DNA from: a virus
Taxonomy: Duplodnaviria; Heunggongvirae; Uroviricota; Caudoviricetes
DNA length: 13,971 nt
IMG/VR virus record: IMGVR_UViG_2693429728_000012
Span: 1-13,971 of that record
Strand: one strand, 5' to 3'
The stretch's first letter is position 1; each line of letters opens with the position of its first letter. Position numbers and translations under genes: made by a program. The notes beneath the pieces are model-generated. The model saw only the letters and a program-made list of their open reading frames with translations. It was not told the DNA's origin and ran no database searches. Below are positions 1-13,971 of the stretch, piece by piece.

Positions 1-699
<699 letters not shown>

Positions 700-1263
700 T
701 TAAGCCTCACTGATTACGGTATGAACCTTAGCTATAGGTTTTATATCACTAATATCACATTCAAATGAAAAACCATCCCCAGATACCATTGCTCTTTTGA
801 CTGGTATCAAATTGATTTTTTTAATACTCAGTTTTCCTTCTATATCCACCAACCATTGACCATCAGAAATGGTAGTGTCTTCTCGGTCACAAATGTAAAC
901 ATGTTGGTTAATTTTTATCGCTAATGCAGATTTTATTTCATTGAGAAGAAAGACTGGATCAATCTTGTGCGTTCCAAGTGCAATAGCCTCTCCATTTTTT
1001 AGTTCGCGAGTTTCAACGTCTACCAAAGAGTTGACTGCTGTGGTTTTTAACTCACCTTTCCCTGATACCAGCCAATCAATTGAAGTACCAGTTTCTACAA
1101 CGCATTGAAGTACCCAATCTGCTGGAAAAATGTCACGCATGTAGCGGGTTGCCATTGTGCTCTTTGAAACCCCTAAGTGGTCGCAAAGGGCCTGACGAGT
1201 GGTGAAACCATACGCCTCAACCAAACGTTCAATCACTTTCTTTCCGCCGCTATTGAAATTCAA
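700..1263 (-). CDS. cI: Phage 186-type CI immunity repressor (HTH N-domain plus C-terminal oligomerisation domain)
   Basis: ORF 700..1350; HTH-like segment ERLVEAYGFTTRQALCDHLGVSKSTMATRY followed by WLVSGKGE and a C-terminal SDGQWLVDIEG block recalled as 186 CI-like. Start uncertain: TTG at 1263 has a GGAGGA Shine-Dalgarno; alternatives are GTG 1236 and GTG 1350 (no SD). Stop TAA at 700-702. Confidence 0.75.
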   Translation of the reverse strand: MNFNSGGKKVIERLVEAYGFTTRQALCDHLGVSKSTMATRYMRDIFPADWVLQCVVETGTSIDWLVSGKGELKTTAVNSLVDVETRELKNGEAIALGTHKIDPVFLLNEIKSALAIKINQHVYICDREDTTISDGQWLVDIEGKLSIKKINLIPVKRAMVSGDGFSFECDISDIKPIAKVHTVISEA

Positions 1264-1290
1264 GAGTCCTCCAAAACAATCTAAATTGCA

Positions 1291-1319
1291 TTGACAGATT
1301 CCAAAAGCGATCTTAAAGT
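1291..1319 (+). promoter_or_regulatory. Candidate rightward lytic promoter (pR-like) for apl-cII-early operon
   Basis: TTGACA (1291-1296), 17-bp spacer, TAAAGT (1314-1319), about 90 bp upstream of the apl start. Its position is compatible with the face-to-face pR/pL arrangement known for 186. Confidence 0.35.
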
Positions 1320-1409
1320 TGACCTCGAAGTCTTCTTTTGGAGCCTTCACAACTAATCACGATAAACAACGGCTCGCCACAAGCCGAATTAAAGAAGGAA
1401 TGTTGCACC

Positions 1410-1631
1410 ATGAACCCAAACATTTCAATCACTCTGAACACACCACACGTCACAATTGAGCGTTATAGCGAACTTACTGGTCTTTCTATCGACACAATCA
1501 ACGATATGCTGGCTGATGGCCGCATCCCTCGGCATCGTCTCCGGAAGGACAAAAAAAGAGAAAAGGTAATGATCAACCTTGCTGCTCTTACCGTTGATGC
1601 ACTTACTGATTGCAATGTTGTATTCAACTAG
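1410..1631 (+). CDS. apl: Apl/Cox-like small DNA-binding protein (excisionase / lytic-switch repressor)
   Basis: 73-aa ORF starting at ATG 1410 with AAGGAA Shine-Dalgarno 9 nt upstream; divergent from cI; basic, small, first gene of the rightward operon as in 186 (apl) and P2 (cox). Confidence 0.7.
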
Positions 1632-1663
1632 TTCCATTTTGGGATATATCAGGGGTGTCGACT

Positions 1664-2173
1664 ATGTTTGATTACCAAGTTTCCAAACATCCACATTTTG
1701 ATGAAGCCTGTCGTGCATTCGCGTTGCGCCACAACCTGGTGCAACTGGCAGAACGTGCAGGCATGAATGTGCAGATTCTGCGGAACAAGCTGAACCCAGC
1801 TCAACCTCATTTATTAACCGCACCAGACATCTGGCTGCTTACCGATCTGACTGAGGATTCAACGCTGGTAGATGGTTTTCTGGCACAGATTCATTGTCTG
1901 CCATGTGTACCAATTAATGAGGTGGCAAAAGAGAAACTGCCACATTACGTCATGAGTGCAACCGCAGAGATCGGGCGTGTTGCTGCAGGTGCGGTTTCTG
2001 GCGATGTAAAAACCAGTGCAGGCCGTCGTGATGCGATCAGCAGCATTAACTCTGTTACACGACTGATGGCGCTGGCTGCTGTTTCATTGCAGGCCCGTTT
2101 ACAGGCTAATCCTGCGATGGCGAGTGCGGTTGATACCGTGACTGGCCTCGGTGCTTCATTCGGTTTGCTGTGA
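1664..2173 (+). CDS. cII: CII-like lysogeny-establishment transcriptional activator (186 CII family)
   Basis: 169-aa ORF from ATG 1664 (AGGGGTG Shine-Dalgarno at 1651-1657), the same length as 186 CII; N-terminus [19 protein letters not shown] and position immediately after apl. Confidence 0.75.
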
Positions 2174-2180
2174 GGTGCTT

Positions 2181-2477
2181 ATGCTTACGAAAGAACCATC
2201 ATTTGCATCGCTGCTGGTAAAGCAAAGCCCGGCAATGCACTACGGTCACGGCTGGATCATGGGTGAGGATGGTAAACGCTGGCATCCGTGCCGTTCACAA
2301 GATGAATTGCTGTCTGAATTGACCACGAGAAAATGGAGAAAGTCCAAATGTATGCGGCAGAAAGTGAAGTGGTTTATCAGTTTCGTTACAGAGGGGAGAG
2401 TTATTCAGTACCTGAAGATGATTTGCTCTGTTGCTATCCGTCGTTGTCGGGCGATGGTAGCTACTTTTTCACGCTAA
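2181..2477 (+). CDS. Hypothetical early protein (position of 186 fil/dhr-type small genes); 3' end uncertain
   Basis: ATG 2181 with GAGGTG Shine-Dalgarno directly after the cII stop. N-terminal half (…HGWIMGEDGKRWHPCRSQDEL) looks protein-like; the C-terminal part overlaps the next ORF in another frame and looks less so. Confidence 0.4.
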   Translation: MLTKEPSFASLLVKQSPAMHYGHGWIMGEDGKRWHPCRSQDELLSELTTRKWRKSKCMRQKVKWFISFVTEGRVIQYLKMICSVAIRRCRAMVATFSR

Positions 2478-2572
2478 AGGATGGAACCTTTATACGTGGT
2501 GAAAAAGTACAAGAAGTGATGCGTATAAAGACATCACCTCTTGAACGTTATCGGCGAAGTATTTATCGGTAA
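2348..2572 (+). CDS. Hypothetical small early protein
   Basis: ORF 2333..2572; ATG 2348 has GGAG 9 nt upstream. Translation MYAAESEVVYQFRYRGESYSVPEDDLLCCYPSLSGDGSYFFTLKDGTFIRGEKVQEVMRIKTSPLERYRRSIYR is compositionally protein-like. Confidence 0.45.
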   Translation: MYAAESEVVYQFRYRGESYSVPEDDLLCCYPSLSGDGSYFFTLKDGTFIRGEKVQEVMRIKTSPLERYRRSIYR

Positions 2573-2811
2573 CGATCTATCAGTGTCTGTATCAGATGAG
2601 TGAATTCTTGTTGTTTAACCGAACCTAAAGGAAGTTTGTTTAATTCTTCGCGGAGGAGCTCAAAAAATGCAGATTGATTTGCTGAGTCAGTTCGAAATAA
2701 GGAGTGGATCAGACCTGAAACAAGAATTCGTTGAACAGCAACCTCATCGCGAAGACTGGAGATCTCGTTTTCAAGTTGCTCTATACGCTCTCTTTCAACC
2801 GGGTTCAACAT
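2563..2811 (-). CDS. Hypothetical 82-aa helical protein encoded antisense to the early operon
   Basis: ATG at 2811 with AAGGA Shine-Dalgarno 7 nt upstream; translation MLNPVERERIEQLENEISSLRDEVAVQRIL… is clean and heptad-like. The competing plus-strand ORF 2667..2903 also has an SD (GAGGAG), so only one is likely real. Confidence 0.35.
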   Translation of the reverse strand: MLNPVERERIEQLENEISSLRDEVAVQRILVSGLIHSLFRTDSANQSAFFELLREELNKLPLGSVKQQEFTHLIQTLIDRYR

Positions 2812-2892
2812 TGATGATTCCTTCTAGCTATCAATATGTTGGTAATGGATCATATCAAAAATTTTTTAGTAGATGTGTTGTGGGATGCATAA

Positions 2893-3234
2893 ATGGCTAT
2901 TGAAGGCACTGCGGCGACTGTTCCATTAAGCCCCGGTGAACGCCTGAATGGACTTAATCACATTGCGGAGTTAAGGGCGAAAGTTTTTGGCCTGAATATT
3001 GAGTCAGAGCTTGAGCGGTTTATTAAAGATATGCGTGATTCACGGGATATTAATAGCGAACAAAATAAACGGGCACTGGCTGCCATATTCTTTATGGCAA
3101 AAATTCCAGCTGAACGTCATAGCATCAGCATTAATGAGCTGACCACTGACGAAAAGCGGGAGTTGATTAAAGCAATGAATCATTTTCGTGCAGTGGTGAG
3201 CTTATTTCCCAGACGGCTAACCATGCCGAATTAA
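2893..3234 (+). CDS. Hypothetical early-operon protein
   Basis: 113-aa ORF with a protein-like sequence throughout (…AELRAKVFGLNIESELERFIKDMRDSRD…); same orientation as the operon. Confidence 0.55.
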   Translation: MAIEGTAATVPLSPGERLNGLNHIAELRAKVFGLNIESELERFIKDMRDSRDINSEQNKRALAAIFFMAKIPAERHSISINELTTDEKRELIKAMNHFRAVVSLFPRRLTMPN

Positions 3235-3301
3235 CCAACTAATGAAATTAATGGCGTAAACCCGCCGGGCATCCCTTTATCTAAATTCAGGAGAATTGAT
3301 T

Positions 3302-3535
3302 ATGCGTAATATTGAAACCCTCTCGACCAAAACCGGACCGGATGACGCAGGGCTTAATATTTTACTGACAGAGGCTCGTCTGGAAGAACGCCGGGCAAGG
3401 GCTGAAGCAATGGCAGCTCGCCTTGATAGCCTGGCGTGTCATATCACATCCCGCCAGCTAACCCACGTCGAAGCGGCAGAACTGCTTCGTGTGACTGCTG
3501 AAGCAATCCAGAACGAAGCGCAGGAGATCCACTAA
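3302..3535 (+). CDS. Hypothetical small early protein
   Basis: ATG 3302 with CAGGAGA Shine-Dalgarno 7 nt upstream (the ORF track starts at TTG 3296); stop TAA overlaps the next ATG (TAATG). Confidence 0.6.
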   Translation: MRNIETLSTKTGPDDAGLNILLTEARLEERRARAEAMAARLDSLACHITSRQLTHVEAAELLRVTAEAIQNEAQEIH

Positions 3536-3762
3536 TGGCTGATGCAATGGATCTCGTACAGCAGCGCGTTGAAGAAGAACGCCAACGCCATATCCGTGCT
3601 GCCCGTGCCAAAACGCCGGGCGTGTCCCGCGTGCTTTGCATTGAGTGTGAAGCGCCAATTCCGCCAGCACGCCGCCGTGCCATTCCGGGTGTGCAGCTTT
3701 GCATTACCTGTCAGGAAATCGCAGAGCTGAAAGGCAAACATTACAACGGAGGTGCTGTATGA
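3535..3762 (+). CDS. TraR/DksA-family C4 zinc-finger protein
   Basis: 75 aa with CIECEAPIPP…CITCQ (CxxC-N17-CxxC), a typical phage TraR-like zinc finger; AGGAGA Shine-Dalgarno; translationally coupled on both sides. Confidence 0.8.
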   Translation: MADAMDLVQQRVEEERQRHIRAARAKTPGVSRVLCIECEAPIPPARRRAIPGVQLCITCQEIAELKGKHYNGGAV

Positions 3763-4616
3763 GCACCATCCTGAAATGGGCGGGAAATAAAACTGCCATA
3801 ATGTCCGAACTGAAAAAACATCTTCCTGCTGGCCCGCGACTGGTTGAACCTTTCGCGGGTTCCTGTGCTGTGATGATGGAGACGGATTATCCCAGCTATC
3901 TGGTTGCGGATATTAATCCTGATTTAATCAACCTCTATAAAAAGGTTGCCGCTGATTGTGAATCGTTTATATCTCGCGCCAGAGTTTTATTTGAGATCGC
4001 AAACAGGGAGGTGGCTTATTACAACATAAGGCAGGAGTTTAATTACTCAACTGAAATTACTGATTTCATGAAAGCGGTATATTTCCTGTATCTCAATCGT
4101 CACGGTTACCGTGGTTTATGTCGCTATAACAAGAGCGGGCATTTCAACATTCCCTACGGTAATTATAAAAATCCGTATTTCCCTGAAAAAGAAATTCGCG
4201 CATTTGCAGAAAAGGCCCAGCGAGCAACGTTTATCTGCGCCAGCTTTGATGAAACGCTGGCGATGTTGAAGGCGGGGGATGTGGTGTATTGCGATCCGCC
4301 GTATGACGGTACGTTTTCCGGCTATCACACTGACGGCTTCACTGAAGATGACCAGTATCACCTGGCATCTGTTCTTGAACATCGGTCATCAGAAGGACAT
4401 CCGGTCATTGTTTCTAACAGTGACACATCCCTGATCCGTTCGCTGTATCGCAATTTTACTCACCACTACATCAAGGCAAAACGCAGCATCGGTGTGGCAG
4501 CTGGCGAGGGTAAATCAGCAACAGAAATCATTGCTGTTTCCGGGCCGCGCTGCTGGGTGGGATTTGATTATTCGCGTGGCGTGGATAGTTCTGCCGTGTA
4601 CGGAGTACGTGCATGA
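3759..4616 (+). CDS. dam: DNA adenine methyltransferase (Dam-like, N6-adenine, orphan)
   Basis: ATG 3759 (ATGA overlap with the upstream stop, GGAGG Shine-Dalgarno). AdoMet motif EPFAGSCAV near the N-terminus and catalytic DPPY (YCDPPYDG); N-terminus [11 protein letters not shown] is typical of Dam-family enzymes. Confidence 0.85.
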
Positions 4617-7027
4617 GTCATGCCGATATGAACAACTGCTGCAGCTTTAACGAAGCTGCCGCATCGTTCTCATGGAACAGCCCGAAAAAGGCCATTAACC
4701 CTTATCTGGACCCGGCGGAAGTTGCGCCGGTTTCTGCGCTTTCAAACCTGATCACTCTGTACGCTACTGATAACGAGCAGGAACAACTGCGCCGCGAGGC
4801 ACTGAGTGATCAGGTCTGGGAGCGTTATTTCTTTAATGAATCCCGTGATCCTGTCCAACGCGAAATGGAGCAGGATAAGCTCATTAGCCGGGCAAAGATG
4901 GCGCATGAGCAGCAGCGTTTTAATCCAGACATGGTCATTCTGACTGACGTCAACGCCCAGCCTTCCCATATCAGCAAGCCGCTGATGCAACGTATTGAAT
5001 ATTTCAGCAGCCTGGGCAGGCCAAAGGCTTATTCCCGCTATTTGCGTGAGACGATTAAGCCATGTCTGGAACGACTGGAGCATGTACGCGACAGCCAGCT
5101 ATCTGCATCTTTTCGTTTTATGGCAAGCCATGAAGGGCTGGACGGTCTGATGATCCTGCCTGAAATGAGTCAGGATCAGGTGAAACGCCTGTCTACCCTT
5201 GTCGCTGCGCATATGAGCATGTGTCTTGATGCCGCTTGTGGTGATTTGTACGCCTCCGATGATGTTAAGCCAGAAGAAATCCGCAAGACATGGGAAAAGG
5301 TGGCTGCAGAAACCCTGCGACTGGATGTCATACCGCCAGCGTTTGAGCAACTCCGCCGGAAAAGAAACCGCCGCAAACCTGTGCCTTATGAACTCATTCC
5401 GGGTTCGCTGGCGCGTATGCTGTGCGCCGACTGGTGGTATCGGAAATTATGGAAGATGCGTTGCGAATGGCGGGAAGAGCAGTTGCGTGCTGTCAGCCTG
5501 GTCAGCAAAAAAGCATCTCCCTATGTCAGCTATGAAGCCGTGATGCATAAACGTGAGCAGCGCCGTAAGTCGCTGGAGTTTTTCCGTTCTCATGAACTGG
5601 TGAACGAAGACGGCGACACGCTGAACATGGAGGATGTGGTAAACGCCAGCAGCAGCAACCCGGCGCATCGCCGCAACGAGATGATGGCCTGTGTTAAAGG
5701 CCTGGAGCTTATCGCGGAAATGCGTGGTGACTGCGCCGTTTTCTACACCATCACCTGTCCGTCACGTTTCCATTCCACGCTAAATAACGGCAGGCCAAAC
5801 CCGACCTGGACCAACGCGACAGTAAGACAAAGCAGCGATTATCTGGTCGGCATGTTTGCTGCATTTCGTAAGGCTATGCACAAAGCCGGGTTGCGCTGGT
5901 ATGGCGTGCGGGTGGCTGAGCCGCATCATGACGGCACAGTTCACTGGCACCTGTTGTGTTTCATGCGCAAAAAAGACCGCCGCGCCATTACTGCATTGTT
6001 GCGTAAGTTTGCCATCCGTGAAGACCGCGAGGAGCTGGGCAATAACACGGGGCCACGCTTTAAGTCTGAGCTGATAAACCCGCGCAAAGGAACGCCGACA
6101 AGCTACATTGCGAAATATATCAGTAAGAATATTGACGGGCGTGGTCTGGCTGGCGAGATCAGTAAGGAAACAGGTAAATCCCTGCGTGATAACGCTGAAT
6201 ACGTTAATGCCTGGGCGTCTCTGCATCGTGTTCAGCAATTCCGCTTCTTTGGCATTCCGGGGCGTCAGGCTTACCGTGAACTGCGATTGCTGGCTGGTCA
6301 GGCGGCAAGGCAACAGGGTGACAAAAAAGCAGGTGCGCCGGTACTGGATAACCCGCGCCTTGATGCCATCCTGGCTGCTGCTGATGCTGGTTGTTTTGCC
6401 TCCTACATCATGAAGCAGGGCGGCGTACTGGTTCCCCGCAAATATCACCTCATCAGAACCGCTTATGAAATCAACGAAGAGCCGACCGCCTATGGCGATC
6501 ACGGTATTCGTATTTATGGCATCTGGTCACCCATTGCAGAGGGCAAGATCTGCACTCATGCAGTGAAGTGGAAAATGGTTCGTAAGGCCGTTGACGTTCA
6601 GGAGGCGGCAGCCGACCAGGGCGCTTGCGCCCCTTGGACTCGTGGCAATAACTGTCCCCTTGCTGAAAATTTGTACCAACAAGGGAAAGACAAATCAGCT
6701 GATGGAGATACCAGAACGGATATCACCCGTATGGATGACAAGGAGTTGCACGATTACCTGCACAGTATGAGCAAAAAAGAGCGCCGGGAACTGGCAGCAA
6801 GATTACGCCTGGTTAAACCGAAACGACGTAAAGACTACAAACAGCGAATTACAGAGTATCAGCGTCAGCAGCTCGTCTATGAACTGAAGTCCAGAGGATT
6901 TGATGGCAGCGAGAAAGAAGTCGATTTGCTCCTTCGCGGTGGCAGTATTCCATCAGGAGCAGGCCTGCGTATCTTCTATCGGAACCAGCGTCTGAAGGAA
7001 GATGATAAGTGGCGGAACCTGTATTAA
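4613..7027 (+). CDS. A: Replication initiator endonuclease A (P2 gpA-type HUH rolling-circle nickase)
   Basis: 804-aa ORF, ATG overlapping the dam stop (ATGA). HUH motif HWHLLCF ([11 protein letters not shown]) and tyrosine motif YIAKYISK; size and position match P2/186 gene A. Confidence 0.9.
6627..6648 (+). other. Candidate rolling-circle origin (nick site) inside the A coding sequence
   Basis: gcgccccttggactcgtggcaa resembles my recollection of the P2 ori nick region (GCGCC..GGAGTC..TG.CAA), which lies in the 3' part of gene A; here it is about 84% into A. Recalled, not verified. Confidence 0.3.
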
Positions 7028-7121
7028 TTACGCGGGTTAACAATTCGTGCTCTTAATAATACCAGGCATATCAGGCTGATGAACGTAAAAAAACGTTTTA
7101 CATCAGTAAGATTATTATATA

Positions 7122-7137
7122 CTGTAAATATAAACAG
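7122..7137 (+). promoter_or_regulatory. LexA operator (SOS box) overlapping the promoter of the downstream small-ORF/dinI-like pair
   Basis: aCTGTAAATATAAACAGtg is a full CTGT-N8-ACAG match to the LexA consensus. It overlaps -10-like hexamers (TATACT 7118-7123, TATAAA 7129-7134), about 45 bp upstream of ATG 7181. Confidence 0.7.
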
Positions 7138-7180
7138 TGGTTATGTATACAGTATTGCTTGTGGTGTCATAGGAGGAAAG

Positions 7181-7369
7181 ATGCAGGACTATTTTTTGGA
7201 GTCTTTGAAGCTCCAGCGCATTGATTTTTTTCTTAAGCTTGTAGCGGCTAGTGAGTGTAGTGATGAAGAGAAGGGGCTGGCTCTGCAGTGGGTTTCTGAA
7301 CTGACAGATGAACTCATGGCAAAAATCAGAACCCACGAATACAACCGCTCAATGGATGTCATCAGCTGA
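7181..7369 (+). CDS. SOS-regulated small protein (possible N-terminal part or partner of a Tum-like antirepressor)
   Basis: 62-aa ORF from ATG 7181 with a strong AGGAGGAAAG Shine-Dalgarno. The ORF-track start at 7079 runs through the promoter and LexA box, so the internal start is preferred. Confidence 0.5.
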   Translation: MQDYFLESLKLQRIDFFLKLVAASECSDEEKGLALQWVSELTDELMAKIRTHEYNRSMDVIS

Positions 7370-7379
7370 GGTGACTTTT

Positions 7380-7613
7380 ATGCGCATTGAAATAATGATC
7401 GATAAAGAGCAGAAGATTAGCCAGTCTACCCTGGACGCCCTTGAATTCGAGCTTTACCGCAATCTGCGCCCCCTATATCCAAAAACGGTAATTCGTATCC
7501 GCAAAGGTAGCTCTAACGGTGTGGAACTTACCGGATTGCAACTGGACGAAGAAAGAAAACAAGTGATGAAAATTATGCAGAAAGTGTGGGAAGACGACAG
7601 CTGGCTGCATTAA
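7380..7613 (+). CDS. DinI-like protein (DinI/Tum C-domain family)
   Basis: ATG 7380 with GAGGTG Shine-Dalgarno. MRIEIMIDKEQKISQSTLDALEFELYRNLRPLYP…KVWEDDSWLH follows the E. coli DinI pattern (MRIEVTIAK…AGAIDALAGEL…ETWESADDW), recalled from memory. Confidence 0.75.
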   Translation: MRIEIMIDKEQKISQSTLDALEFELYRNLRPLYPKTVIRIRKGSSNGVELTGLQLDEERKQVMKIMQKVWEDDSWLH

Positions 7614-7621
7614 GAAACGTT

Positions 7622-7660
7622 GCCCCCAAGAGGATTCATTCGAATGGGGGCTAGTTTGGG
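7622..7660 (+). terminator. Possible terminator after the dinI-like gene
   Basis: GCCCCCA…(palindrome CATTCGAATG)…TGGGGGC followed by TAGTTTGGG; the stem is GC-rich but the loop is large and the T-tract weak. Confidence 0.3.
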
Positions 7661-7798
7661 CAATGAGTGAAATAAGGCGTAAGGTGGGTGGTCATTTTGA
7701 TAAATGATCGTCCGCTTTGTGCCAGAAGCGAACGTTTCTTCTGCTATCTTTCGTCAATTAACGAATGGCAGACTAATTTGCAACGGATAATCTGAATT

Positions 7799-7825
7799 TT
7801 GTAAGATTATGGGTATTCCTATAAT
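7799..7825 (+). promoter_or_regulatory. Candidate sigma70 promoter for the KAP NTPase gene
   Basis: TTGTAA (7799-7804), 15-bp spacer, TATAAT (7820-7825), in an AT-rich intergenic region upstream of ATG 7935; spacer is shorter than optimal. Confidence 0.25.
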
Positions 7826-7934
7826 ATTTACCAATAATAACCTTACAATGTACACTACCTATTGAATTTTCCATAGTTGGCCTTTGGCTCTACTTACCAT
7901 CTATGTTTATGTATTTTATCAAAATGGACTAAAA

Positions 7935-9827
7935 ATGCACAATACGTACATCAAAGACTATATAGAATATTACCTTAGCCTTAAAACTGAACCTCAATAC
8001 GCCATTATGCTTAAAGGTGCTTGGGGATCAGGTAAAACTTGGTTCATTGAACGAGTTCTTGAAGAATATAAGCAAAAGCATTCAGAGTTCAAATTTCTTA
8101 AAGTGAGTTTGTATGGCGTCAACTCTATTGAGCAGATTGAAGATGAGTTCTATCGTCAACTTCATCCTATTCTATCAAACAAAGCCCTTATCTTTGGTGC
8201 AAATGTACTAAAAAATACGCTTAAGGCTACTTTCAAGATCGATTTCAATGGCGATAATAAGTCTGACGTAGATGTCAATGCCAGTGTCCCCACCATTAAT
8301 CTTAGCGACTTTAGCAGAGAACCAGATGGTTTTGTGCTGGTCTTTGATGATATCGAGAGAGCTGGTATAGATTTACCAATCTTATTTGGATATATAAATC
8401 ACTTTGTAGAAGTAAACGGATACAAAGCGATCCTGGTTGCCAATGAAGAAGAAATAATCAACAGAGAAAAGCGAATAAATAATGATGATGAGAAATCTAG
8501 CAGTGAATACATAAGAACAAAAGAAAAGCTTGTAGGTAAAACATTTGAAGTAACGTCAGATTTACATAGTGCTTGTAATATTTTCTTGGGCGTAATTAGT
8601 AGTTTACACGTAGCTAATATATTTAAAGAAGATATGCAGACCATAGAACACCTCTATGTGTCGGCGAAATATAATAATCTAAGACATTTGAGGCAGTTCT
8701 TTCTTGATGTACAACGCATCATTTCCCTTTTGGGAGATAAATATGTCAGCAACGACGATTTTATGAAAGTATTTTTCCAGCAGTTATTAATTTTCTCGAT
8801 GGAGTACCGGGGAGGGAACCTTAACTACGAGGATTTCAATTCAATCGGCAATGTAAATTATAGTATGTTTTTAGATAAAGGGCGTGCCAAAACTAAGTAT
8901 GATATGATCGTCGAGAAATATTCATCACCTGTATTAACCGAGACGTTACTGGATGGTGCGTACTGGAGAGAGCTAATCTGTGATGGAAAGGTAACGCATG
9001 ATCTTCTCGCTCAGCTGGATATTACGCGATTTTTTAGAAGCACCGATGCCCAAGCATGGGAGTATTTGTGGAACTATCGAGAACTTAATGAAACTATTCT
9101 TAATGAACAGTACGCCATTGCCAAGGATAATCTATTTTCAGGTAAGATCACTTCCTTAGGTGAACTCCTGATGACCGCGAGTATTTTGCTGGCATTGGCG
9201 AAAGAAGGTTTAACCACAGATGCTGTTGATGACATTATAAATGAGACAAAACATCATATAGATATTTATTACAATGGATTAGGACCTGAAGATATACATC
9301 AGGAGTATGCGCAAAGACATTATAATGAGTTAATGGCATGGCGTGGCTTTGGTTTTCTTGACAGGGATAGCGATGAATTCAAACTCATTATTGAGCATAT
9401 TAAGATAGCGCAGAAGAAACGGTTTGATGAATCAATTCCGGAGTTTGCATTGAAGTTCAGCGATGAGTTGCAAAGAGGAAATTTATCGTTTGTATCTGAA
9501 TTGTGTCATTCTAATAATAGGCAGCTAAATCTTCATAACGTGCCTTTTTTACACTTGGTTTCTCCTGAAGTTTTCATTGAAAGCTATAGGAAACTTGACC
9601 CAATCATCATGAGGAAACTGGCATTTAGCTTGAGGGATCGTTATTCTGATAGGGATGCCAGAACCAGACTGACCGAAGAATACAACTGGTTGATTAGCCT
9701 AAAAGAGATAGCTGTAGATTTCACTCAAAACGCAGCCAATAACTCCTTTCAGGTTTTTCATGTAAAGTTTTTTATTGACTATGCACTAACTAATGCAATC
9801 AAATTATTTACTGAGGGAACTGATTAA
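7935..9827 (+). CDS. KAP-family P-loop NTPase (full length, about 630 aa), probable accessory/defense cargo
   Basis: Walker A GAWGSGKT near the N-terminus and Walker B VLVFDDIER about 120 aa later, with a long alpha-helical C-terminal region. First in-frame ATG is 7935 (the ORF track begins at TTG 7884). Strongly AT-rich compared with flanking A and Q/P genes. Confidence 0.85.
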   Translation: MHNTYIKDYIEYYLSLKTEPQYAIMLKGAWGSGKTWFIERVLEEYKQKHSEFKFLKVSLYGVNSIEQIEDEFYRQLHPILSNKALIFGANVLKNTLKATFKIDFNGDNKSDVDVNASVPTINLSDFSREPDGFVLVFDDIERAGIDLPILFGYINHFVEVNGYKAILVANEEEIINREKRINNDDEKSSSEYIRTKEKLVGKTFEVTSDLHSACNIFLGVISSLHVANIFKEDMQTIEHLYVSAKYNNLRHLRQFFLDVQRIISLLGDKYVSNDDFMKVFFQQLLIFSMEYRGGNLNYEDFNSIGNVNYSMFLDKGRAKTKYDMIVEKYSSPVLTETLLDGAYWRELICDGKVTHDLLAQLDITRFFRSTDAQAWEYLWNYRELNETILNEQYAIAKDNLFSGKITSLGELLMTASILLALAKEGLTTDAVDDIINETKHHIDIYYNGLGPEDIHQEYAQRHYNELMAWRGFGFLDRDSDEFKLIIEHIKIAQKKRFDESIPEFALKFSDELQRGNLSFVSELCHSNNRQLNLHNVPFLHLVSPEVFIESYRKLDPIIMRKLAFSLRDRYSDRDARTRLTEEYNWLISLKEIAVDFTQNAANNSFQVFHVKFFIDYALTNAIKLFTEGTD

Positions 9828-9890
9828 CATTTTGTTGATTAACATAGGTAATATTATTAGAAGTACTAGACATGGTCAGTAAAATTATTA

Positions 9891-9924
9891 AAGTCCGCTT
9901 CGCTCGAAGCGGACTTTGTGCTTT
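9891..9924 (+). terminator. Rho-independent terminator downstream of the KAP NTPase gene
   Basis: Perfect inverted repeat aagtccgcttcg-ct-cgaagcggactt followed by tgtgcttt. Confidence 0.6.
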
Positions 9925-10045
9925 ATAAAAACGAGAGTTTTGTTTTTCAAGCGGTCATTCGGTTACGGGATTTCACTTCCCCCGTAAGTGCATGACTATG
10001 CCGCATGAGATCGCATGATCGTTTGCGGATCGTTTTTGCCAAGGT

Positions 10046-10067
10046 CCGCCAGAACTGGCGGGCTTTT
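10046..10067 (+). terminator. Second rho-independent terminator (or 3' end of a small transcript)
   Basis: ccgcca-gaac-tggcgg, a 6-bp GC stem with tetraloop, followed by gctttt. Confidence 0.45.
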
Positions 10068-10112
10068 GCGTAGATCATGCAGGTGCATGAAAACCACTAC
10101 ATAAAGTGGGCA

Positions 10113-10131
10113 GGCGTGGCGGGGATACGAG
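10113..10131. other. Candidate cos site (cohesive-end sequence) of a P2/186-like phage
   Basis: GGCGTGGCGGGGA matches the start of the 19-nt cohesive end I recall for 186/P2 (GGCG[T/A]GGCGGGGAAAGCA…), and it sits between the A-side cargo and Q where cos is expected. Downstream bases diverge from the recalled sequence. Confidence 0.4.
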
Positions 10132-10289
10132 CGCGCGCAACGAGGTGAAATAGCAAAACTCGGCACAGCCTACGGCCCGCTAGCGGCTTCAAATTGAAAT
10201 GGTGAGGTGCAGCAGCAAAAAAACCGCCCCACAGGAAGTTGTTGAGGTTGTTTATTGAGGGAATTGGCTTAAGCGGTAAAACACAAACA

Positions 10290-10318
10290 TTGCAACTTGT
10301 GCATGAAATTGATACATT
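10290..10318 (+). promoter_or_regulatory. Candidate promoter for the 223-aa unknown gene
   Basis: TTGCAA (10290-10295), 17-bp spacer, TACATT (10313-10318), about 30 nt upstream of ATG 10351, which has a GGGGTG Shine-Dalgarno-like sequence. Confidence 0.25.
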
Positions 10319-10350
10319 GTGCGTAATGTGTCTATATTGCGGGGTGTTTT

Positions 10351-11022
10351 ATGGCTTTCAGAGCGGAAGAAGCAGCAGCATCGAATTTCGAAAATGCTTA
10401 CAGATATCTAGTTCCACAAGGTTCAAATCAGGAGATGCGTTCGAAAGTTAGGGCGAAGCTCAAAGAAATTGTTGAAGAATGTGGGCCAGTAGTGGATGGG
10501 TATCCAGCATGGCACCCTTTTTTGCTGGAAAGAGATAAAGCTATTTGGGCGCCTATGACTCCCAATAATACTCCTAGCTTTAAATACCTGGACCACACGG
10601 TCTATTTCAGGAACGGCATTCTTACCTGTCCTTATGGTCATGGGGTTGATGAATTTATAGCTGGTATAAAACGTCTAAAGCACACGGATGCCCATTTCTC
10701 TATTGAGAAGATTGATGACGTTGTGCTTTATAATGACAACGCCGTCCCGTTGTTAATAAAATGCCATTGGCTTATTTCGGAAGATATGGAAGAGGATGGC
10801 ACCATTCCAGCAAAAGCAGCAATTGGATTGATGCTTGAAAGCGAGGTTCCTAACTGGCGGCATGCAGTTTATTGTGAAAATTGGGAAGATATGCGCGGGC
10901 AGTTGATGGGATATCCGCACGGTGCCAGATCATCTCTATTTGTTAATCAGCAGACAGGACAGAAAATGAAAAACTTCTGGAATCAGCTGATTAAGACCGG
11001 AATTCTTGGGGAAGAGCGATAA
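10351..11022 (+). CDS. Hypothetical 223-aa protein of unknown function (cargo gene between cos and portal gene)
   Basis: Clean ORF with a protein-like sequence and no motif I recognise; has its own putative promoter and a downstream hairpin; convergent with Q; moderately AT-rich. Confidence 0.7.
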   Translation: MAFRAEEAAASNFENAYRYLVPQGSNQEMRSKVRAKLKEIVEECGPVVDGYPAWHPFLLERDKAIWAPMTPNNTPSFKYLDHTVYFRNGILTCPYGHGVDEFIAGIKRLKHTDAHFSIEKIDDVVLYNDNAVPLLIKCHWLISEDMEEDGTIPAKAAIGLMLESEVPNWRHAVYCENWEDMRGQLMGYPHGARSSLFVNQQTGQKMKNFWNQLIKTGILGEER

Positions 11023-11035
11023 TTTCTTGAGGCTT

Positions 11036-11066
11036 AGCTGCGCCTTTAACAAGCAGAGGCGCTGCT
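11036..11066. terminator. Bidirectional terminator candidate between the convergent 223-aa gene and Q
   Basis: gcgcct-ttaacaagcag-aggcgc, with an inner agcag/ctgct stem, followed by tttttaaattt; lies in the 52-bp gap between two convergent stop codons. Confidence 0.4.
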
Positions 11067-11074
11067 TTTTAAAT

Positions 11075-12124
11075 TTAGCTATCGTTGTTTGTGTCTATTC
11101 CCAGCGTGTAGGGCTCGAAGCGGATCACCTCTTTACCTAGCCAGTAATTCAGCTCCTGCAGCCGCTTTTGCAGCGGCATCAGTTCATTGCGGACGAAGAC
11201 ACGGCTCGCTTTTTCCACATCCCCAAAACCCCCAACATTATTCGGCATAATCCCCATCATTTGCGGTGGCACACGATGCGCCGCCATCATGTCATCCCGG
11301 CTCACGTTCTTGATGTTCAGAAACTCATCCTTCGCCGCGACTTCTGACAACGGGATGATCTGAAGCCCGTCCTTTTTGCCGTTAGGCGAGTACATAAACA
11401 GATTGCGGAAGTTACCTGGTCCTTTGGCGCTTTTCATCGCATTGCGGAGGTTGTTCACATCCTCCTGGTTTTGCGCGGCATCGGTCATGTACATGATGAA
11501 GCCTGCATGACTGCCGTTAATGTAATACTTTCGGCGGAACAGCGTGGCGGACTCGTTGAGCAGGGCTGACGGAATGGCAGAAAGATAACCTGGCAGGCCG
11601 TAGATCTCCTGGTTGATGTCCGGTTCCATCAGATGAAAGATGCTGCCTTTCGTAAACTGATACGGCTGCGTGGTCATGCCGTATTGCACAAACCAGTAGG
11701 TATCCAGGTCTAACCCGCGTCGGGTGTATTTTGCCAGGGCCGGTTCAAGGACGATAACTTCACCGAAGCGGTTCGTGCGTTTCTCCAGGTAGGCGTTACC
11801 AAATACCAGATAGTCCTGCACAAAACGTGAAAAAGCCTGCTGGCTGAGCAGCGGGTGAGGGATGTAGGTGCTGGTCAGAATGTTGCACTTTACTGCAATC
11901 GGGGAACTGTGATGCACGGCGGCGCGAAAGGTGCGCGCCAGCCCGTCGAAACTCACTGGCGGCTCATACCAACGATCTGTCTGTACGCATTCCACATAGT
12001 CCAGCAGTTCGCGGCGGTCCAGAACAGGAACGGGATCACCGAAGCTGAATGCTTCGGCTGAAGTCTGGCTTTTATGCTGGATCTGGTTCGTCGACGCAGC
12101 GCGGTTCTTCTTACTCTTTCCCAT
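11075..12124 (-). CDS. Q: Portal (capsid portal/head completion) protein, P2 gpQ-like
   Basis: About 349 aa, N-terminus MGKSKKNR…; size, orientation and adjacency to the terminase match P2 Q. ATG 12124..12122 overlaps the P stop (TGATG); the ORF-track start at 12127 is TTG. Confidence 0.85.
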   Translation of the reverse strand: MGKSKKNRAASTNQIQHKSQTSAEAFSFGDPVPVLDRRELLDYVECVQTDRWYEPPVSFDGLARTFRAAVHHSSPIAVKCNILTSTYIPHPLLSQQAFSRFVQDYLVFGNAYLEKRTNRFGEVIVLEPALAKYTRRGLDLDTYWFVQYGMTTQPYQFTKGSIFHLMEPDINQEIYGLPGYLSAIPSALLNESATLFRRKYYINGSHAGFIMYMTDAAQNQEDVNNLRNAMKSAKGPGNFRNLFMYSPNGKKDGLQIIPLSEVAAKDEFLNIKNVSRDDMMAAHRVPPQMMGIMPNNVGGFGDVEKASRVFVRNELMPLQKRLQELNYWLGKEVIRFEPYTLGIDTNNDS

Positions 12125-13890
12125 CAAAAAATCTCCACAATATTGCTGGTATTGGCGGACTCGCCCTGCAGCGGTTCGTTAAACAGTGCGTGCATGGTTG
12201 CCCAGGCCAGATCGGCATGGCTGGCTTCTTCGCTGCGGCTGGCTTCATAGGTCGGGCGGTTGCCGCTGGCGGTGGTGGCGCGACGGATTGCCATAAATGA
12301 CTGCGCTATGTCGGTGTGTCCGGCGTCAAACTCCAGACGGCGGTGACTGATAATGTCGTAGGCCTTGAGTACCAGGGCGTTTTTAACGTTGGGGTTGTAG
12401 ACAAACTCCCGGACGGCTGGAAAAAACGCTTTCACGTTCTCGTAAACCCCGTGACCAACGCCGGTTGAGTCGATACCGATATAAGTCACGTTGTACTGTT
12501 CGGTAAGTTTTTTGATGGCGTCAGCCTGGGCGCGGAAGTCCATCCCGCGCCACTGGTGACGCTCAAGAATGCGGAACTTACCACCCGGCACGGCTGGCGG
12601 TGCCACCACCACGCATCCAGCGCTGTCGCCGTTTTGCGTACCTTTTGCCGGGTCATAACCGATCCACACTTCGCGCCAGCCAAACGGGCGCAGTGCCAGT
12701 GCATGAAAGTCGGTCCAGACTTCCCAACTGTCCACCATGCACGCCTGCAGCTCGCTGAGCGGAAACACGGACGCGAGATCGTCCACAAACTCGCACATCA
12801 GCAGGTTCTGGTATTCGTCCGGGCTGTACTCCATGCGTAGCTGGTCGAGGTCGAACAGGTTACAGCCGCCGCGCACCGCATCTTCCACGGTGACTATCTG
12901 GCGGTACTGCCCGTCTGCGCACAGCAGGCCGGGGGCTAGATTGCTGTGGGACAGGTCGATGTCCACCTTATCGGCTTTGTTGCGCCCACGGTTGAACAGC
13001 GCACCGGACCAGAACGGATAAGCACTGTGTGTCAGACTGGATGGCGTGGAAAAATAGGTTTGTCGCCATTTTTTGTGAATAGCCATACCGGAAGCCACTT
13101 TGCGCAGCTCCTGGAATTTCGGTATCCAGAAATATTCATCCAGATACAGGTTGCCGTGGTAACTCTGGGCCGTGCGGGCATTGGTGCCGAGGAAGTAAAG
13201 CGTGGCCCCGTTAGGAAGCACCATCGGATCGCCTTTCAGCTCCACCTCCACTTCTTTGGCAAAGTCGATGATGTACTGTTTAAAGACGTGGGCCTGAGCC
13301 TTGCTGGCAGAAAGGAAAATCTGGTTACGCCCGGTCAGCAGGGCGTCAATCAGGGCTTCACGGGCAAAGTAAAAGGTCGCGCCGATCTGGCGTGACTTCA
13401 GCAGGTTGCGGATGCGGTTGGTTTTTCCGGCTTCCCACCAGTGGCGCTGGTAGTTGAACATAGAGGAATTGAAGATTTCTTCCAGTTTCTCAATCTGTTC
13501 ATCGGTGAAAACATTCTTTTCCGGCTGACGACGTGGGCCTTTGTTGCGGTTGGCAACGTTAGGGTTTAAGTCGGCTTCGTTGCCGCCATTGTTAAACTTG
13601 CCGATCCGCGCGTGGCGCTCAGACTGGCGTGCCAGCAGGTCAATTTCTTTGAAATCTTTCCCTTCTTTGTGCTCCTTCATAATGAGCTGGCAGTAGCGTG
13701 CGGCGGTGGTGAGCTGCATCTGATCCAGCGGCCCATAGTCACCCCACTTGTCGCGTTTTTTCCAGCTGTGAACGGTTGCAACTTTCTCGCCCAGCATTTC
13801 AGCAATGCGGGCGACGCGGTATCCCTGAAAGTACAGCAGCATGGCCTGCCGACGGGGATCGAGGTCTGCGGGTGTCAGTGTGGTGTTCAT
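12124..13890 (-). CDS. P: Terminase large subunit (ATPase/nuclease), P2 gpP-like
   Basis: 588-aa ORF from ATG 13890; size and position upstream of Q are characteristic of P2-like terminase P, and the sequence is protein-like throughout. Confidence 0.85.
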   Translation of the reverse strand: MNTTLTPADLDPRRQAMLLYFQGYRVARIAEMLGEKVATVHSWKKRDKWGDYGPLDQMQLTTAARYCQLIMKEHKEGKDFKEIDLLARQSERHARIGKFNNGGNEADLNPNVANRNKGPRRQPEKNVFTDEQIEKLEEIFNSSMFNYQRHWWEAGKTNRIRNLLKSRQIGATFYFAREALIDALLTGRNQIFLSASKAQAHVFKQYIIDFAKEVEVELKGDPMVLPNGATLYFLGTNARTAQSYHGNLYLDEYFWIPKFQELRKVASGMAIHKKWRQTYFSTPSSLTHSAYPFWSGALFNRGRNKADKVDIDLSHSNLAPGLLCADGQYRQIVTVEDAVRGGCNLFDLDQLRMEYSPDEYQNLLMCEFVDDLASVFPLSELQACMVDSWEVWTDFHALALRPFGWREVWIGYDPAKGTQNGDSAGCVVVAPPAVPGGKFRILERHQWRGMDFRAQADAIKKLTEQYNVTYIGIDSTGVGHGVYENVKAFFPAVREFVYNPNVKNALVLKAYDIISHRRLEFDAGHTDIAQSFMAIRRATTASGNRPTYEASRSEEASHADLAWATMHALFNEPLQGESANTSNIVEIF

Positions 13891-13936
13891 GGCACAAACC
13901 TACAGCCTTGAATGAAGGCTTTCCCCGCCTGCGGTT

Positions 13937-13954
13937 TGTGTGGTTGTCGGTACA
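13937..13954 (-). promoter_or_regulatory. Candidate P2-type late promoter activator site (Ogr/B-type TGT-N12-ACA dyad) upstream of P
   Basis: Minus-strand reading TGTACCGACAACCACACA is TGT-N12-ACA, centred about 55 bp upstream of the P start codon; P2 late promoters carry such a dyad near -55. Confidence 0.35.
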
Positions 13955-13971
13955 AATACCGCGCATTGTTT

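Follow-up and report, generated by a model that had tools for sequence, protein, structure and literature searches.

A split tum operon behind two predicted LexA boxes as the probable SOS-induction module of a Fels-2-type prophage

The viral DNA analysed here (Caudoviricetes; positions 1 to 13,971 of IMG/VR record IMGVR_UViG_2693429728_000012) is a stretch of 13,971 nt that we call the window. At 7120-7613 it carries what is very probably the SOS-induction operon of a Fels-2-type prophage (Felsduovirus, P2/186 family), in which one gene, tumA, encodes an antirepressor and a second, tumB, an accessory protein. The module is the split tumA/tumB subtype known from PSP3 and Fels-2, not the fused form of phage 186.

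Results

Architecture and setting

A LexA operator, a 62-codon ORF and a DinI-family ORF make up the module, and all three are found at 7120-7613, with replication gene A on one side and the cargo region on the other, in a prophage of the 186/Fels-2 type. The window reads from an immunity repressor gene (cI, 700-1350, minus strand) through the genes for CII, a DUF5347 protein, a DksA-type zinc-finger protein, a Dam methylase and replication protein A (GpA, 4613-7027) to the tum module and about 3.4 kb of cargo; it ends with the portal (11075-12127) and terminase (12124-13890) genes, both on the minus strand. As in 186, the module lies downstream of gene A and the phage encodes a 186-type CI (Pfam PF07022 and PF16452), and the antirepressor and DinI-like parts that are fused in the 186-type module are separate here.

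On the plus strand, tumA (7181-7369) runs from an ATG at 7181 to a TGA at 7367-7369 and encodes 62 residues. The Shine-Dalgarno sequence read upstream of it, AGGAGG at 7171-7176, is kept in relatives as AGGAGG(G). Also on the plus strand, tumB (7380-7613) starts with the ATG at 7380, ends with the TAA at 7611-7613 and encodes 77 residues; a Shine-Dalgarno-like GAGGTGA (7368-7374, containing GGTGA) precedes it and overlaps the tumA stop codon. Relatives have GGGG or AGGG at this position, with 9-12 nt between stop and ATG. The two ORFs were originally described as lying in different frames, with a stop at 7369 and a restart at 7380, and this is what we find, the spacer being 10 nt. An alternative tumB start at ATG 7356 (85 aa) was rejected: it has no ribosome-binding site and is not conserved, and DinI proteins begin with MRIE. 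Also set aside was a terminator-like hairpin at 7358-7375, over the tumA stop and the tumB ribosome-binding site, with a z of only -1.2 against shuffled sequences and a junction that is not conserved.

On the 3' side of tumB, a G+C-rich hairpin at 7622-7651 (plus strand; RNA fold -19.5 kcal/mol, z -2.15) lacks a proper T-run. It is possibly a partial terminator, since 186 has one, t95a, at the same position after tum. Homology with Fels-2 stops at about 7611, near this hairpin.

The second gene encodes a DinI-family protein

That the second gene is DinI-like, as originally proposed, is borne out by a match of its product to the Pfam DinI family (PF06183) at E 3.4e-22, with 79 bits against a Pfam gathering cut-off of 24.2 and coverage of profile positions 1-63 of 63. 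TumB is 41% identical to residues 71-145 of 186 Tum (BLASTP, E 5e-24), matches E. coli DinI (1GHH) over its full length (residues 1-75, E 5.7e-6) and is identical at 76 of 77 positions to the Fels-2 and E. coli HS proteins. The acidic C-terminal WEDDSW motif is kept. These likenesses suggest that TumB would bind RecA filaments and modulate their co-protease activity.

The first gene is related to the N-terminal part of 186 Tum

BLASTP returned no alignment between the 62-aa ORF and 186 Tum, so we rely on profile methods for their homology. With hhalign, a profile of 28 diverse TumA homologues matched Tum residues 3-44 with a probability of 94.9% and an E of 4.5e-8. The ORF matches phrog_698 (E 3.6e-38), phrog_8554 and phrog_1993, and the N-terminal 70 residues of Tum match the same three PHROGs, including phrog_698 at E 5.9e-6; identity in the matching region is about 21%. 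These results support the view that tumA encodes an antirepressor and that its product is a homologue of the N-terminal part of Tum. When both ORFs were aligned to Tum, as the original split-Tum reading called for, that reading held, the N-terminal part being recovered by profiles and the C-terminal part by BLASTP.

TumA is predicted to fold as a hairpin of two helices (pLDDT 88). Foldseek matched the model to generic helical hairpins only in the PDB (E > 0.4), and a sequence search of the PDB with the family gave no match. A representative search with TumA yielded only 66 clusters, almost all of short stand-alone proteins, and no fused protein of Tum length was among them. The window protein is identical at 61 of 62 positions to both STM2728 of Fels-2 and ECHS_RS04495 of E. 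coli HS.

Two predicted LexA boxes overlap the tumA promoter

The best-scoring LexA site in the window, box 1 (distal; 7120-7139, assigned to neither strand), has the sequence TACTGTAAATATAAACAGTG. Its core, CTGT-N8-ACAG at 7122-7137, is the sole exact core match in the window; with one mismatch allowed in the 8-base core there are 2 sites against 4.25 expected, which is not above chance. The original description of a full-consensus operator holds for this core but not for all 20 bases, of which 17 agree with the LexA consensus. Sites were scored by heterology index (HI) with a matrix rebuilt from 26 E. coli LexA sites, which gives approximate values and does not exactly reproduce published ones. 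By this matrix box 1 has an HI of 4.7 on the plus strand and 3.7 on the minus strand, the best in the window; no site in 100 shuffled windows reached this score, which falls in the range that the same matrix gives for recA and lexA. A LexA box lies upstream of tumA in 31 of the 32 relatives with a readable upstream region.

The original prediction overlooked a second predicted site, box 2 (proximal; 7135-7154, likewise without strand; CAGTGGTTATGTATACAGTA), which overlaps box 1 by 5 bp. It is the second-best site in the window, with an HI of 9.4 or 8.2 depending on strand, a score expected 0.04 times per shuffled window, and it deviates from the CTGT/ACAG core at two positions. Its right half, TACAGT, is kept in the Enterobacteriaceae clade and its flanks vary. 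The two top-scoring sites of the window are thus offset by 15 bp and share their inner ends.

Colicin operators have the same layout. When the 71-nt operator region was compared with plasmids by BLAST, the matches lay directly upstream of colicin N and cloacin genes, with 86-88% identity over about 43 nt, and the operator TACTGTAAATATAAACAGTGGTTATGTATACAGTATT aligns column for column with AACTGTATATAAAACCAGTGGTTATGTGTACAGTATT of colicin N. All of these operators consist of two 20-bp LexA boxes with a 15-bp offset and a common CAGTG; those of the colicin type drive bacteriocin genes, whereas the one here drives a prophage antirepressor. Common descent and convergence under LexA constraint are both compatible with the 43-nt likeness. 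Colicin double operators bind two LexA dimers, which results in very tight repression (PMC2994835), and LexA would likewise occupy both predicted boxes here.

A consensus scan called no plus-strand promoter upstream of tumA. Our promoter call rests on a layout like that of the annotated p95 of 186 and on conservation across 24 relatives. The plus-strand -35 hexamer TTTACA at 7097-7102, preceded by an A-tract at 7087-7093, is the counterpart of that of p95. The -10 region at 7118-7125 (plus strand) may be read as TACTGT (7120-7125, 17-nt spacer) or TATACT (7118-7123, 15-nt spacer), and it overlaps box 1; in p95 a -35 is followed after 18 nt by a -10 TACTGT that forms the first 6 nt of the LexA box. 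Aligned, the 24 relatives show conserved islands (TTTAC, TATACTGT, ACAGTG, TACAGT and AGGAGG) with variable sequence between them; TATACTGT, at the -10 region, is almost invariant, and the spacer between -35 and -10 varies. We infer a transcription start from this promoter. At the level of sequence, a LexA operator overlaps the antirepressor promoter as expected of a Tum module, and this part of the original prediction is upheld: box 1 begins with the -10 TACTGT, as in p95.

More distant relatives from Tatumella, Pantoea and Erwinia (L027-L034) have a single LexA box, about 40 or about 96 nt upstream of the tumA ATG, and for this reason the double box seems to be characteristic of the Enterobacteriaceae (Fels-2) clade. 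Most of these relatives have no DinI-like gene.

The split is conserved and under purifying selection

The original prediction left open whether the two ORFs are a natural two-gene variant or a disrupted tum, and the evidence favours the first of these and disposes of the second. A frameshift or stop that had broken a once-fused gene would leave a non-inducible or decaying prophage; the different frames, the 10-nt gap and the failure of BLASTP to relate the first ORF to Tum speak for such an event. The distribution of the split form argues otherwise. The 673-nt region is 97.8% identical to that of Fels-2 (STM2728 and STM2726.1), and phage records from Klebsiella, Salmonella and Escherichia contain it as well. 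Of 5426 complete E. coli genomes, 1125 have the module; at 95-99% identity the split form occurs in about 1000 E. coli genomes and in phages of Klebsiella and Salmonella. The exact 62-aa TumA sequence is indexed in > 55,000 assembly blocks.

Conservation was gauged in 33 relatives at species level, spread over about 15 genera of Enterobacterales. The tumA gene is intact in 32 of them. Its spacer to tumB is 9, 10, 11 or 12 nt, so that all three relative frames occur across genera while both ORFs stay intact, and each ORF of the window has its own ribosome-binding site. Further, dN/dS is 0.07-0.08 for tumA and 0.06-0.07 for tumB (17-32 species-level relatives), a sign of strong purifying selection on both. 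The sole relative with a broken tumA (L035) has lost its LexA boxes too, which is what decay looks like. The tumB frame is open from before 7308, and a +1 shift could yield a fused protein; programmed frameshifting or readthrough to a TumA-TumB fusion was rejected because the spacers of the relatives fall in all three frames.

To judge from the sequences, then, the two-gene arrangement is a natural variant and not a disrupted tum: many genera keep it, and selection on both ORFs is purifying (dN/dS about 0.07). The same conclusion follows from the annotation of tumA and tumB in PSP3, from the split described for Fels-2 and PSP3, and from the loss of induction on deletion of the gene in E. coli HS, the near-identical prophage of which is inducible and needs the 62-aa gene. 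The reading as a broken tum, which conservation has already refuted, retains hardly any probability.

Genetic evidence from E. coli HS

The Phollow study (Nat Microbiol 2025; PMC12055606 / PMC11195241) made an in-frame deletion of "tum" (ECHS_RS04495) in DuoHS, a prophage of strain HS. Loss of the 62-aa gene abolished induction and lysis by mitomycin C, and mitomycin C induction of the HS prophage was found to need both this gene and a cleavable LexA (PMC12055606 / PMC11195241). In the delta-tum primers, GTGGTGTCATAGGAGGAAAGATG is followed directly by TGAGGTGACTTTTATGCGCATTG; these two parts match 7161-7183 and 7367-7389 of the window exactly, and the primers fuse the ATG and TGA of ECHS_RS04495. 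The gene deleted in HS was therefore precisely this 62-aa ORF, and the DinI-like gene was left in place.

TumB appears dispensable for induction

Tum of 186 contains both parts in one polypeptide, and it could be supposed that TumA and TumB associate non-covalently and are both needed to inactivate CI. The DinI-like gene lies directly downstream of tumA in about 20 of the 33 relatives, where the spacers of 9-12 nt suggest translational coupling, and the HS experiment shows tumA to be necessary, not sufficient. Against such a two-chain Tum, about 12 of the 33 relatives lack a DinI-like gene within 2.5 kb of a tumA that is itself intact and LexA-boxed, and in another three the copy is truncated or frameshifted. 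In PSP3 the antirepressor activity has been assigned to the upstream gene (PMC3121763), and the free DinI-like fragment of 186 is annotated as a modulator of induction, not an effector. We consider a two-chain Tum unlikely. Since about 15 of the 33 relatives have no tumB or a decayed one and yet retain tumA with its LexA box, the partner seems dispensable, and we regard TumB, on this phylogenetic pattern, as accessory to induction and not required for it.

The repressor and its pairing with TumA

The product of cI is 33% identical to 186 CI (E 6e-37). The ORF as listed has a GTG start and 216 codons; alignments with CI proteins of relatives begin only near residue 29, so that translation probably starts inside the listed ORF. 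CI is the presumed target of TumA. Overall the window variant is 45% identical to HS CI (N-terminal domain 70%, C-terminal domain 30%), and as it differs from the HS protein, the action of TumA on it would be an extrapolation.

Identical TumA adjoins at least five CI variants (188-210 aa) in otherwise complete-looking prophages. Among these variants the N-terminal DNA-binding domains are 59-76% and the C-terminal domains 25-45% identical, and the N-terminal domains have a long conserved stretch in common. This pattern fits, and does not prove, a contact of TumA with the conserved N-terminal domain of CI and the cross-induction of co-resident relatives.

Among E. coli matches to the tum module with its cargo gene, the closest, in E. 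coli 2014C-3011, is 99.6% identical over 7028-7700 and differs from the window in having a 210-aa-type CI and an extra DUF3850 gene. These differences mark the window prophage as a mosaic of left and right arms. The repressor could be mismatched: the operon would be SOS-induced, but TumA would not inactivate the window CI, and the prophage would fail to respond to its own module, which might instead cross-induce co-resident relatives. The mosaic left arm and the other CI of that best whole-module match speak for this, as does the limited identity of the window CI to the other variants found beside identical TumA (59-70% N-terminal, 25-32% C-terminal). We think a mismatch very unlikely: the presence of identical TumA beside at least five CIs is hard to explain unless it is active on all of them, and their N-terminal domains share the conserved stretch.

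The cargo region

Between tumB and the portal gene, 7614-11074 is a hypervariable cargo slot by comparison with L040-L049 (10434 to about 14000). The gene after tumB (7884-9827, probable start ATG 7935) encodes a KAP-family P-loop NTPase (PF07693, E 3.6e-21) that matches the PADLOC candidate defence family PDC-S49 (E 1.5e-160) and occupies the orf97 slot of 186 and Fels-2. According to the 186 record, plasmid-expressed orf97 blocks 186 infection. Elsewhere the cargo beside identical TumA comprises an AAA+ ATPase with an S8 peptidase, a GAPS4-type PDDEXK protein, GmrSD, a reverse transcriptase with an SMC-like ATPase, DndB or a trypsin-like protease. Such variability fits the known P2-family defence hotspot.

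A non-coding gap of 520 nt (9828-10350) precedes a 223-aa ORF (10351-11022) that has no match in Pfam, PHROGs or PADLOC. Inside it lies a weak LexA-like palindrome (10490-10509, TAGTGGATGGGTATCCAGCA) with an approximate HI of 10.9-11.4, marginally better than the mean best score of shuffled windows (11.99).

Discussion

We propose the following course of induction. LexA would sit, in the undamaged cell, on the two overlapping boxes at 7120-7154, over the -10 region and the likely start site of the promoter that lies downstream of gene A. DNA damage would activate RecA and bring about the self-cleavage of LexA, whereupon the tumA-tumB promoter would fire. TumA would then bind the 186-type CI stoichiometrically and stop it from binding its operators, releasing the lytic promoter. 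TumB, as a free-standing DinI-family protein, would probably bind RecA filaments and modulate the SOS signal. Tum of 186 acts by sequestering CI, and the biochemistry of direct CI binding is known for full-length 186 Tum only; we infer the same direct contact for TumA in Fels-2-type phages.

The nearest known systems are the same module: STM2728/STM2726.1 of Fels-2 in Salmonella LT2 and the tum gene of DuoHS (ECHS_RS04495) with ECHS_RS04500 in E. coli HS. Both share with the window the double LexA operator, the place after gene A and the 10-nt spacer, and they differ from it in their cargo 3' of tumB, an orf97-like gene in place of the KAP NTPase, and in the CI variant. In PSP3, too, tum is split, follows gene A and is preceded by a LexA box. 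Its GenBank record describes tumA as "similar to 5' end 186 tum; UV induction of prophage" and tumB as "similar to dinI and 3' end of 186 tum", and the Fels-2 record cites PSP3 TumB. PSP3 TumA is only 22% identical to the window protein, and its genes are in frame, with a stop codon and 3 nt between them, whereas those of the window are out of frame. PSP3, like 186, has a single LexA box where the window has two.

Phage 186 resembles the window in the LexA box over the -10 of a promoter downstream of gene A and in the family of its CI. Its Tum, of 146 aa, joins both parts by a linker of about 25 residues, in place of which the window has a stop codon and a spacer, and orf97 lies downstream in the same operon as tum. 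An internal GTG start, preceded by a GGAGG of its own, yields the DinI-like half of Tum as a separate product as well, and the 186 record annotates this free fragment as modulating SOS induction. A further parallel is found in the dinI-gfoA/gftA operons of Gifsy-1/2/3, which are LexA-repressed, pair a small antirepressor with a DinI homologue and bring about induction without repressor cleavage (PMC3121763). These operons differ from the module here in having dinI first, in the sequences of their antirepressors and repressors, which are unrelated, and in belonging to lambdoid phages. Lemire 2011 (PMC3121763) described tum as split by a stop codon in Fels-2 and PSP3; the same paper placed the antirepressor activity of PSP3 in the upstream gene, a statement that rests on a personal communication and is cited here second-hand.

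Both the mechanism and the split architecture are thus already published, and they have been tested genetically in a near-identical prophage, so that nothing new follows from this instance in those respects. What our analysis adds are testable refinements: the operator is double and colicin-like, the DinI-like partner is dispensable across relatives, and one TumA is paired with several CIs. Neither the double operator nor cross-induction by one TumA of prophages with many CIs was found stated in the literature searched, Bunny et al. 2002 excepted from that search. We tentatively suggest, with rather more doubt than conviction, that in the Fels-2 clade the double colicin-type operator may act as a tight lock, with late firing or firing in a small subpopulation, and that an invariant TumA may inactivate many CIs by way of their N-terminal domain. 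Were this so, a single SOS event would cross-induce co-resident Fels-2-like prophages with differing CIs.

Through this module, prophages of a very common family in E. coli, Klebsiella and Salmonella sense DNA damage, and about one fifth of complete E. coli genomes contain it. It is of relevance to antibiotic-triggered phage release, and also to annotation, as tumA is still a "hypothetical protein" in RefSeq.
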